DNA of 64,000 nt, taken from Octopus vulgaris. Lineage: Eukaryota. Both the position numbers and the translations under genes were made by a program. Below, in pieces: positions 1,361 to 27,600 of the stretch (positions are counted from its first letter, which is position 1; the number at the start of each line of letters is the position of its first letter). The notes below the pieces were generated by a model. The model saw nothing but the letters and a program-made list of their open reading frames with translations, had not been told where the DNA came from and ran no database searches. The stretch is taken from positions 48,236,001 to 48,300,000 of the forward strand of contig OX597830.1 in NCBI GenBank assembly GCA_951406725.2. Reading direction: 5' to 3'.

Positions 1361-2034
1361 TAAGACAGTTTTAGACGAACGAAACAATAGACACATGAAC
1401 AAGAGAAAGAGAAAGAGAAGAAGAGGTATAGAAAGAGAGAGAGAGAGAGTTACTCAGGATTGTGGGCAATTCTGATTTGATCCAGTTTGAGGGTTTTCAT
1501 TCATTTGTGAGTAAGTTACCCTACTTTTTTCCCCATTTTCTTTGATTTATTTTTAAAAACAAAATCTGATTTACACATTCAGTTAAGCATCTTGTGTAAT
1601 TATTGTGCGTAATTTTAAAAACGCATATCATATTCTGTTTTATTATAAGATCCCTTTTCGTCTCCCTCACAAACTGATGTCATCCATACACAAATATTAC
1701 ACATCAGATATGCATTATTTTCTTCATCAAATATATTGAGAATATTCTCTGAGAGTCACATGACAAAACGGTCTTATAAAACTTTACATTTTCTCTTCCC
1801 TCTTCGGTAATCTTGTGTCTCAATCCGTTTCTAAATTTTCTGCTAAACACATCACTCAAAACTTTATTAGAATTTTAACTCTACAAACAAATATTTTTCA
1901 AGTCACGCTAATCTACATCGACCAGAGAAATCGCAGTCAATTTTCAAATGCTAACCGTATTGTCTCTCTTTGGACTAAAACATAGAATACAAGTCAAGGA
2001 ATGAAAAAACACAAGAAGATTCAAATTTGTTTAC

Positions 2035-2292
2035 CGTCTCCATACTTGGTCGGCACAGATCTTCTCAACTGATAAAAATGGGTTTTATATTCTCTTATTA
2101 GCATCCTCTCTGTTGAGTCTTCTTCGTATAAAATACAGCTTGGACTTATCGTTCTGTTCACGAAGGATTTACATGCAGAAGTTTCAAAACAACTCTTCGA
2201 ACAGTTGAAGGCATCCACGTCAAGTGTCATCAATGTTTTGGCATCTTTCAGACCGGCGTTTGGTACTTTCATAAAATACTTCAGATATTCAA
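2035..2292 (-). CDS. Copy A coding exon 3, PAN/apple-like domain 1; the gene presumably continues beyond the window start
   Basis: 258 nt, intact splice sites, open frame, [26 protein letters not shown]. Confidence 0.85.
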
Positions 2293-24600: not shown

Positions 24601-27600
24601 TCCTTTATCTTCATTCTTTGTAAATTAATGTTAAACGTGAATATGAAATATGAAATTTTTTTCCAAAATAAATTTTCGTTGCAGTTCTCTTCTACATCTC
24701 ACTGACATTTGGAAATGGACGTAAGTAAATTTATATCAATATATAGACCTATATCTATGAAAATTATGAAAACCACTATTAAAAACTTTAATTTATAAGT
24801 TCAGTGAAGGAAAATATTTTCCTTCTCTAACTAAATTAGATGAAAAGAAGACTCAAGATAAATCTCGTGTTATGACGAATTCAATTCTTAACATAATTTC
24901 CACAGTTTTACGTCAGTTTGTAAGCATTTTGTTAAATAAAACAAAGTGCTGGTATTAGGGGACATTCTTTACAACAGACAACCGTTAAACATTATAGTAT
25001 ATAACTTGTGAATCATTTAAATAATAGAATTAATTAAACAACATTAAAGACTCATTCGCAGTCATTTTCATTAAACAGATTATATATCCCAAGATGCTTT
25101 GTACCTACACTATGGTAGTAACAACTCTATCACTTCTTCCTGGTAAAAATATCAATGCTGATCCTCAAACATTTAATATTCTCTATCTTTATTATTATCT
25201 ATTTTCACAATGTTTTATTTTCGTCTTCGTATTTTGGTTGTTAAATTTGCCTGGCTTTGTTACAGTTGAATATCTGAAGTATTTTATGAAAGTACCAAAC
25301 TGTGCTCTGAAAGACGGTAAAACATTGATGACACTTGACGTGGATGCCTTCCACTGTTCGAAGAGTTGTTTTGAAACTTCTGCATGTAAATCCTTCGTGA
25401 GCAGAACGATAAGTCCAAGCTGTATTTTATACGAAGAAGACTCAACAGAGAGGATGCTAATAAGTAAATATAATATCCATTTTTATCAGTTGAGAAGATC
25501 TGTGCCGACCAAGTATAGAGACGGTAAACAAATTTGAATCTTTTTGTGTTTATTTCATTCCTTGACTTGTATTCTATGTTTTTGTCCAAAGAGAGACAAT
25601 ACTGTCGGCATTTGAAAATTGACTGCGATTTCTCTGATCGATGTAGATTAGCGTGTGTTGAAAAATAATTGTTTGTAGAGTTAAAGTTCTAATAAAGTTT
25701 TGAGTGATGTGTTTAGCAGAAAATGTATTTCTACGCTGTACCTTGAAAAACAGCCGCAAGAGAGGTAAGCTCTGTTCATTGTGCAACAACATGTGCAACA
25801 ACAAATCAATTCCATCAAGAATCATCACAGAAATGTTATGATTTATACAGAAGGTGGAACATGTAGAGATTCCCATTTGGTGTATGCGGCAGAATGCACG
25901 AAACACAATCCAATTTATGTTCGTTGCACAACAGAACAATTAAACAAAATATTTAATGGACACAAATAGGATTTCAGACACAATAACAGTAGTTCGACAG
26001 AAGTTGCTGAACATTTTTCTTCAAACGGCTGCAATTTTGAAGAAGATTTGAAAGTGCATTTTCTCAGTGAATATTCTCAATCTGCTTCACTTTCACTTCT
26101 CAAAGTGCATGAGCTTACACATAGATTGGCAAACAAAATATTGGTCAGAAGTTTCCAACTGCATTCCCTTTACTTGAGTCCTTCTGGTATAGAACCGTTC
26201 TTCCTTTTGCCATCCAGGCCATTATTTGGATGTCACTATTCGGTACTTCATCCATCTGTCTCGCAGTTTTTCTGTGCAGTGTTGTCAAGTTTTTAAGCCA
26301 AAAGCCCTGAACCCCATCTGGGCCAGGTGCTTCCGGATAGGAATTTTCCTGCACTGATCTCTAATCAGCTCGGTTATTCTCAAATTCTTCTGCTGATACT
26401 CTCCATTCTCCTCTTTGAGTCTCTTTAACCACTCTGCTTCAGTTTCGTGTCGTTTCTCCTGAGACTATATGTTTGAATCGAAACTTTTGCTTTCTTCAGC
26501 ATCCGGAACGGCTTTTTCACTCTTTTCTTTCCCAGTTCCTGATAGATTCTTTTCTGATTTTGTTCGAAAAGTCTGTTTAATCTGTACTGCTCAATTCTCT
26601 GTTCATATCGTTTTAGTTTATGTGCTTTAGCTTCCAACCTATGTTTTAATTCCTCAATCATAGCATTGATTCCCTTTCTCTTCACCCTATACCTCCTCTT
26701 TAGCACAACATATTTCACTCACCGAACTTCATTTCTCTTTTTCCGTTCCAAAATATTAACATGGTTTCTGGTCTCGTTTATAGACTGCGTTATTCTCCTT
26801 CTCCACCTTCAGGTTACGTTGACATTTACCTTTGGCTTTCAAATCTATCTTCCGGGCTATAAATTTCGAGATTGCATTTATCAGCTTGTTGGTGTCCTGA
26901 TATCACCGATGATATCATTTATCTTCCTGACCCATTCATTGAGTTTCATTCTGTCTACTTTTTAAAACATTATTAATATATATTATTATTGTCATTATTA
27001 TTATAATTGTTGTTATTGCTAGTATTATTATTCATATACACTCAACAGATAGGACTGTTGGAAAAGAAAAGAATCCTAACATCGGGCTCGCACAAGTAGC
27101 TTTAGATAGTAAGAACCTTCCTAAGTATGCTAGCTTTCTTCAATGACACTTTTCTGCAGCTGCACTATACTGGGTTTTATGCCTATTTCATCTCTCCATC
27201 TGTTCAGAAGAGAAAAACCTAAGCTACACAAACACACAATATGAAAACTAATACAACAACAGGCTCAAACAAGACCCCATAACAAAACATTATCCCGCCC
27301 CCACAAAAACATGCAGCACGCACCAACCCACCAGCACAATTTTGCAATAGAAAGTTGCTTGAAAGTTTCAGATGTCGAACATTAATAGTGGTGATGACGA
27401 TGGTGACGAACGTTACCTTACCTCAGTTTATGAGAGACAGGAGTTTCGGAAGAAACTCAGATTGTAACAGCGAAAATGAAGCTGGTCCTTTAAGGGACGG
27501 CCTCTCGCTTGGCGGTGGATCAGTAAAGATGCAGACTGACCACAGCTGTCATCGTAACACAGCATCAGCAGATAATAGAGCAAAGGGGAGGAAGTGGACC

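Follow-up and report, generated by a model that had tools for sequence, protein, structure and literature searches.

Copies A and B, two genes that stand head to head in a palindrome of the Octopus vulgaris genome, are no more alike than other neighbours in the gene array to which they belong. The window, meaning the whole 64,000-nucleotide stretch analysed (C17:48236001-48300000, on a contig of a 2.8-Gb genome), has a GC content of 35.7% and contains no N; positions without a prefix are in window numbering and may run beyond 64000. We read the ~24-kb palindrome as two head-to-head members of a 14-gene octopus array whose products carry three PAN (apple) domains, no closer to each other than to other copies and likely derived from one old inversion that was later recopied, and we put the probability of this reading at roughly 0.7.

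The comparison covers the promoter through exon 3 of the 12 copies with an exon 1, over 3,601 columns free of gaps. A and B are 95.5% identical there, ranking 13th among 66 pairs with a median of 94.9%. The closest copy to A is G8, a gene on the same strand and 58 kb away (98.5% identity), with which A shares 18 private alleles; with B it shares one. In the approximately unbiased (AU) test, a clade of A and B is rejected (p 2.7e-5), as is one of A, G8 and B (p 0.0035), while a clade of G2, G7, G9 and B is not rejected (p 0.23). Sister relationships follow the array, not the facing arms. The original prediction expected gene conversion from arm to arm, as in amplicons on sex chromosomes. This survives for the centre, where signs of short copying are seen, but not for the genes: besides the ordinary rank and the rejected clade, no A-B conversion tract was found from promoter to exon 3, and the longest shared run is not unusual (P=0.12). 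Longest shared runs with P<0.01 occur in 11 of the 66 pairs, which fits patchy exchange across the array. Segment by segment, the A-B pair ranks 14th of 66 and then 21st, 11th, 58th, 2nd and 14th of 91, exon 4 being the segment at rank 58. Two points weigh against our reading. The placement of B beside G2, G7 and G9 is weakly supported (56/39), and the exon-5 segment, at rank 2 of 91, is the one exception, where some A-B exchange may have occurred.

The inverted structure itself, with its short spacer, is real, as had been predicted. Self-BLAST of the window recovers inverted collinear blocks (1832-14969 versus 25727-16259) in which ~8 kb of the 13.1-kb left and 9.5-kb right arms is paired, giving 7,766 aligned columns over nine measured blocks:

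1832..14969, minus strand: left arm, with the upstream region of copy A, exons 1-3 and the start of intron 3.
16259..25727, plus strand: right arm, with the upstream region of copy B, exons 1-3 and the start of intron 3.
14970..16258, no strand: spacer, 1.29 kb.

Exons 1-3 are present in both arms and face outward, with ATG, GT/AG splice sites and open frames, again as predicted, and the suggested look upstream of the window for exons 4-6 of copy A located them. Both copies are complete and open, with six exons each, and encode 280 (A) and 282 (B) amino acids:

9700..9730, minus strand: copy A exon 1, with ATG and the first part of the hydrophobic leader.
2850..2885, minus strand: copy A exon 2.
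2035..2292, minus strand: copy A exon 3, PAN domain 1.
7.8-12.8 kb left of the window start (upstream flank), minus strand: copy A exons 4-6.
5893..7990, plus strand: broken insertion of a long interspersed element (LINE)-type reverse transcriptase in intron 1 of A, common to G8 and absent from B.
21608..21638, plus strand: copy B exon 1, with ATG.
24685..24720, plus strand: copy B exon 2.
25266..25523, plus strand: copy B exon 3, PAN domain 1.
39073..39303, plus strand: copy B exon 4, PAN domain 2, the hypervariable exon.
45732..45827, plus strand: copy B exon 5, a helical linker with one cysteine and one strand.
46333..46529, plus strand: copy B exon 6, PAN-like domain 3 and stop.
60245..60410, plus strand: orphan exon 4, truncated and frameshifted.

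Identity between the arms is uneven, at 92.9-96.0% in five outer blocks and 98.4, 97.2 and 98.6% in the inner blocks, with 638 bp free of mismatches. Position 1832/25727 is the point at which intron 3 of B departs; beyond it, A is homologous to other paralogues and B to G13, so this outer end is not a duplication breakpoint, and A-B homology picks up again at exons 4-6. That the structure is an aged duplication and not a fold-back is borne out by the divergence of the arms and by closer sisters elsewhere. The large pieces offered as arm-specific, where checked, turn out to be common to other paralogues: the LINE of A and the segment 12694-13740 also occur in G8, and 19430-20193 of B in seven others. 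Arm divergence, arm-specific blocks and the nearer sisters elsewhere rule out a fold-back read artefact.

The centre of the palindrome has a history of its own, and its parts are as follows:

14332..14969, plus strand: left copy of the perfect mirror, 638 bp identical to 16259-16896.
16259..16896, minus strand: right copy of the perfect mirror; G7 has no such segment, which here begins within a CATA-rich tract and is probably a templated copy of the left arm.
16897..18217, minus strand: young section of the right arm, 97-99% like 11901-14331 and without 12694-13740.
14970-16054, no strand: spacer loop, part of an old loop also found, at 95% and flipped, upstream of G7, in part upstream of G2, and as a 95-bp remnant upstream of G9.
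16055-16260, no strand: inner end of an older short inverted arm, matching 14366-14571.

Inner blocks carry 28 substitutions in 1,972 columns, compared with 283 in 5,794 in the outer blocks (Fisher p 1e-13). Arm-to-arm copying in this palindrome reaches ~2 kb, not the genes, and the perfect 638-bp mirror could reflect either local copying of this kind or an assembly error. The B side has an additional 0.6-kb segment that starts in the CATA-rich tract, with two letters shared at the junction. Each of the four head-to-head gaps in the cluster of 14 genes contains pieces of one common centre, and none of six other upstream regions examined does, suggesting a single old inversion that has been copied again since. 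The region upstream of G7 reads short arm, loop, short arm, promoter; the loop in the window (A/B) and at G2 is reversed relative to G7 and G8/G9, and it is largely deleted at G8/G9 and at G2. A contig with another species label, compared over 14660-16160 and thus short of the 16259 junction, covers that interval unbroken with 53 differences and includes the older short inverted arm, so the core of the centre is real and old. A foldback or terminal inverted repeat transposon was rejected as the origin of the inner repeat: full-length matches to the spacer and inner arms are confined to this cluster, and matches elsewhere are partial, at 66-90%.

These features suggest a sequence of events in which one old inversion would have been recopied in later segmental duplications, some direct and some inverted. 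Both the 97-99% tract and the perfect 638-bp copy may stem from short template switching between the inner arms, perhaps as one or two brief templated copies made from the A side onto the B side, and a crossover between the short inner arms may have flipped the loop, with loop deletions following later. The inner-arm events would end ~2 kb short of exon 1. Across the array, unequal exchange likely keeps the promoter and exons 1-3, 5 and 6 alike, and selection would keep exon 4 distinct.

The array was analysed over a 564-kb region of C17 without N. An exon-3 search of the genome yields 28 matches among 76 candidates, all on C17: 14 at 47.95-48.41 Mb, four at 44.8 Mb, six at 57.0-57.2 Mb, one at 68.7 Mb and three distant ones at 26.4-26.7 Mb. 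The cluster at 47.95-48.41 Mb has six genes on the minus and eight on the plus strand, in the order - - + + - - + - + - + + + + (G1-G9, A, B, G12, G13 and G15, plus two fragments), with four head-to-head pairs. Wherever exons were found, the frame is open in all 14 genes; G3 and G6 are without exon 1, both broken at the same point in intron 1. The first intron donor of G8, whose exon 1 lies at C17:48187362, is AT and not GT, the gene being otherwise open. Exon 6 occurs in two tandem copies each in G3 and G12 (C17:48021836-48022796; 48330338-48331295), both open, and alternative last exons are possible. A search with a distant exon 4 revealed a second, distant PAN-gene array at C17:26.38-26.69 Mb, with at least 10 copies, all on the plus strand. 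Single-strand sub-clusters are thus seen at 44.8 Mb (4/4) and 26.4-26.7 Mb (10/10), and the 57-Mb group is mixed.

Inverted duplication had been proposed as the engine that amplifies this family. It did occur, between G2-G3 and G7-G6 (C17:47961700-48003000 versus 48098000-48156500; 34 kb aligned, 94.2%), an older event. As stated, however, the engine idea lacks support, given the one shared centre in all four gaps, the single-strand sub-clusters and the two youngest large duplications, which are direct. One of these relates 19573-79553 to 102535-166331 (41.6 kb aligned at 97.3%, with pieces up to 99.7%), and the other relates G8 to A (97-99.5% identity). The former, which runs from window 19573-64000 on to C17:48315553 and matches C17:48338535-48402331, has an 83-kb period and covers B and G13, the exon 4 of which differ at 5 of 76 residues. 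This B/G13 duplicate is either a very young duplication or an uncollapsed haplotype, and both of the youngest direct blocks could be uncollapsed haplotypes. Direct and inverted duplication both act in the array, and direct duplication of units already holding an inverted pair explains the alternating orientation.

Variation within the family is concentrated in exon 4, which encodes the middle domain. Across the 14 copies, amino-acid identity averages 88% in exon 3, 58% in exon 4, 91% in exon 5 and 87% in exon 6. At the nucleotide level, exon 4 is 75.9% identical compared with 87.9% for the flanking intron (172 columns; 95% interval of the gap 8-16 points), and its codon positions 1, 2 and 3 are at 73.5, 76.4 and 77.0%. 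Segment trees disagree, with flanks alike and exon 4 deeply split. In exon 3, G1 and G4 are 85-92% like B (G4, 92%); in exon 4 the figure falls to 39%, and there both group with copies of distant clusters, so exon-4 lineages are older than their flanks. In codon site models (M1a/M2a), twice the log-likelihood difference (2dL) is 34 for exon 4, with 23% of sites at an omega of ~4, 27.5 for exon 3 and 0 for exon 6. The exon-4 value becomes 101 with 26 copies, 38 with only the 12 copies of other clusters and 37 without G8 and G13, and none of 70 neutral simulations reached the observed 37.7. Flagged exon-4 sites, including codons 20, 45, 50, 52 and 69, map to strands of the sheet in the model, and two of these sites sit on either side of a conserved cysteine; the alternation of residues along the strands suggests that they may form one exposed face. 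With a 2dL of 34-38 above all 70 null runs, and with the reservation that conversion inflates the test, exon 4 may well contain sites under positive selection.

A recent inverted duplication of one gene could instead have made A and B, with conversion of the sex-chromosome kind maintaining them and repeated inversions driving family growth. Such a history would suit the alternating orientation with its four head-to-head pairs, the 34-kb inverted block of G2-G3 and G7-G6, the climb in identity toward the centre up to 638 perfect base pairs, and the loop in A/B and G2 that is flipped against G7 and G8/G9. It has already failed over the genes, where the A+B clade is rejected, no A-B tract is found, identity is ordinary and the exon-4 segment ranks 58th of 91, and the single shared centre, the direct youngest blocks and the single-strand sub-clusters speak against it across the array; we regard it as very improbable. 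A partial assembly error is unlikely, though less so. The 638-bp copy would then result from collapse or polishing, and the direct duplicates at 97-99% (G8/A and B/G13) may be uncollapsed haplotypes. In keeping with this are the absence of any difference in 638 bp, a B/G13 block at 98-99.7% in many pieces, and contig comparisons that end short of the 16259 junction. Against this stand the 564-kb region free of N and the contig with another species label, which spans 14660-16160 in one piece with the older short inverted arm; an asymmetric 0.6-kb segment next to that arm is not something a fold-back read would produce. G8 and A also have different partners (G9 and B, 95.8% identical, with unrelated exon-4 types), and the outer arms cannot be two haplotypes because each has a closer sister elsewhere.

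For exon 4, the competing explanation is that it varies through age and weak constraint, without selection for new specificities, and that the proteins are structural or redundant. Several observations lean this way and weigh against a selective reading. The site models were run in our own implementation, not PAML. Gene conversion, when simulated, raises the site-test statistic: of 52 runs with conversion tracts, 10 passed the nominal 5% level, and two reached 27 (maximum 27.2), so the exon-3 signal is not secure. In exon 4 the pairwise ratio of nonsynonymous to synonymous divergence (dN/dS) averages 0.99 (0.66-1.38) and so does not exceed 1; third codon positions have diverged too (77.0%). 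The dS of exon 4 is high, 0.32 compared with 0.06 in exon 3, which indicates that age accounts for part of the variation. Exact counterparts of two exon-4 types from other clusters occur among named O. sinensis proteins; types are thus also retained over time, evidence that not every copy turns over rapidly. The loss of exon 1 in G3 and G6 and the broken first donor of G8 are likewise compatible with relaxed constraint. Against weak constraint count an exon less conserved than its flanking intron, codon positions 1 and 2 no better conserved than position 3, 26 of 26 examined exon-4 copies open with cysteines largely kept, and a signal that holds in the 12 independent copies. We regard this explanation as unlikely.

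The products are predicted to be secreted, non-catalytic binders in which the middle domain sets target specificity. Pfam PAN_1 scores are 24.0 (B) and 27.5 (A) bits for exon 3, 37.2 for exon 4 and 23.0 for exon 6, above the curated cut-off of 21.4. A structure model of the O. sinensis relative P0009, built on a 30-row alignment, has a predicted local distance difference test score (pLDDT) of 87.6 and consists of three helix-on-sheet modules. It matches the N domains of HGF and plasminogen, the fifth apple domain of MIC4 (MIC4-A5), SML-2 and the apple domains of kallikrein with Z scores of 8-12 (HGF N domain: Z 12.4, root-mean-square deviation (rmsd) 2.1, 81 aligned residues; MIC4-A5: Z 8.1, rmsd 2.2, 70 aligned). 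An ESM Atlas search returned generic PAN clusters only. Read by eye, the protein starts with a hydrophobic leader and lacks a hydrophobic tail at its C-terminus, which together suggest secretion. The octopus proteins share the PAN/apple fold of known binders (Sarcocystis SML-2, Toxoplasma MIC4, the HGF and plasminogen N domains, factor XI and prekallikrein), with an rmsd of ~2 Å for single domains. They are 13-23% identical to these binders and have no protease, kringle or membrane anchor, and the likeness to lectins is one of fold. The fifth apple domain of Toxoplasma MIC4 binds galactose, according to the available text of PMC13672358. Apple-domain lectins offer an analogy that puts microbial or parasite glycans or surface proteins first among possible targets, a suggestion that is plausible but tentative; other possibilities are saliva or venom, mucus, or the coats of eggs or sperm.

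Relatives of these genes are found in other octopods. The nearest named proteins come from Octopus sinensis, O. vulgaris and O. bimaculoides, and a protein search of 1.84 billion representatives returned 43 matches. Names were looked up for 24 of the 43: 19 are from Octopus or Argonauta, three are unrelated PAN-repeat proteins and two are unnamed, with no squid or cuttlefish among these 24. Uncharacterised ‘Apple domain-containing’ proteins (O. sinensis LOC118766713, LOC118766702 and LOC118761179; O. bimaculoides LOC106868906; Argonauta GAB1605676.1) have the same leader, three-PAN layout and length of ~280 amino acids; the Octopus proteins among them show 65-86% identity in domain 1, and none of the group carries a functional annotation. 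Compared with them, the two genes of the window are young-cluster variants with their own middle domains. Five further octopus proteins (P0021, P0022, P0027, P0029 and P0032; 667-2,643 amino acids) contain many related PAN repeats and are a possible source or membrane-bound relatives. A literature search, with most subscription papers and some supplements outside its reach, gave no description of this triple-PAN family. Three ‘Apple-like’ proteins are reported from octopus skin mucus, with no link to the triple-PAN family in the available text of PMC10138644.

The arrangement invites comparison with the palindromes of mammalian X and Y chromosomes, which in the available text of PMC8327919 and bioRxiv 10.1101/800185 are inverted arms carrying paralogues around a spacer. 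PMC8327919, as far as its accessible text goes, defines them by arms of at least 8 kb and at least 99% identity, and describes spacer inversions and deletions between copies of X palindromes. The octopus locus shares paralogue-bearing inverted arms of at least 8 kb and spacer inversions and deletions, but only 638 bp exceed 99% identity, and its genes, at 95.5%, are each nearer to another copy. With arm identity below 99% over the genes, it is not an ampliconic palindrome by the published criterion. The locus works like an ordinary tandem array, as do cephalopod protocadherins, which the available text of PMC9068888 describes, together with S-crystallins and suckerins, as clustered lineage-specific paralogues on one chromosome, formed by duplication with suggested gene conversion. 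Most protocadherin sub-arrays described there run one way, whereas the array here has mixed orientation and one hypervariable exon; neither ‘apple’ nor ‘PAN’ appears in the main text of that source.

In the major histocompatibility complex (MHC) peptide-binding exon and the plant S-locus, one old, diversified exon lies between homogenised flanks. In the octopus family the variation seen is among paralogues.

The window also holds several repeats. An AT-rich dispersed repeat occupies intron 1 of cluster copies (22290-23010 and 8107-8815), with 28 listed copies outside the cluster at 84-89%. A mitochondrial insert at 22290-23010 was considered and rejected, as the segment has no long frame under table 5 and no tRNA and is this dispersed repeat. 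AT runs lie beside a 265-bp self-palindromic element resembling miniature inverted-repeat transposable elements (18310-18574 and ~47140-47470), related pieces of which recur in the window. Two nested Tc1/mariner-type transposase remnants lie at 31400-33350 (Pfam Transposase_1 at 31695-32321), and several decayed LINE copies (26400-28900, 35800-38500, 41700-44100 and 56600-59700) lie in introns 3 and 4 of B and downstream. There is no Rfam match in window 1-27000.

The palindrome itself adds little, because tandem arrays are already known to yield head-to-head paralogue pairs whose short centre was copied recently, and the gene family is the stronger finding. Octopods might possess, on one chromosome, at least 26 and perhaps ~36 as yet undescribed, secreted triple-apple recognition proteins with a near-constant frame and an exchangeable, positively selected middle domain that escapes homogenisation, and these could serve as germline-encoded variable binders for non-self or gamete recognition or for prey targets, a proposal that we make speculatively. 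If the middle domain sets specificity, the family would offer a compact, testable set of variable octopus recognition proteins, with 26 open exon-4 copies and products of ~280 amino acids each that are easy to express and screen.

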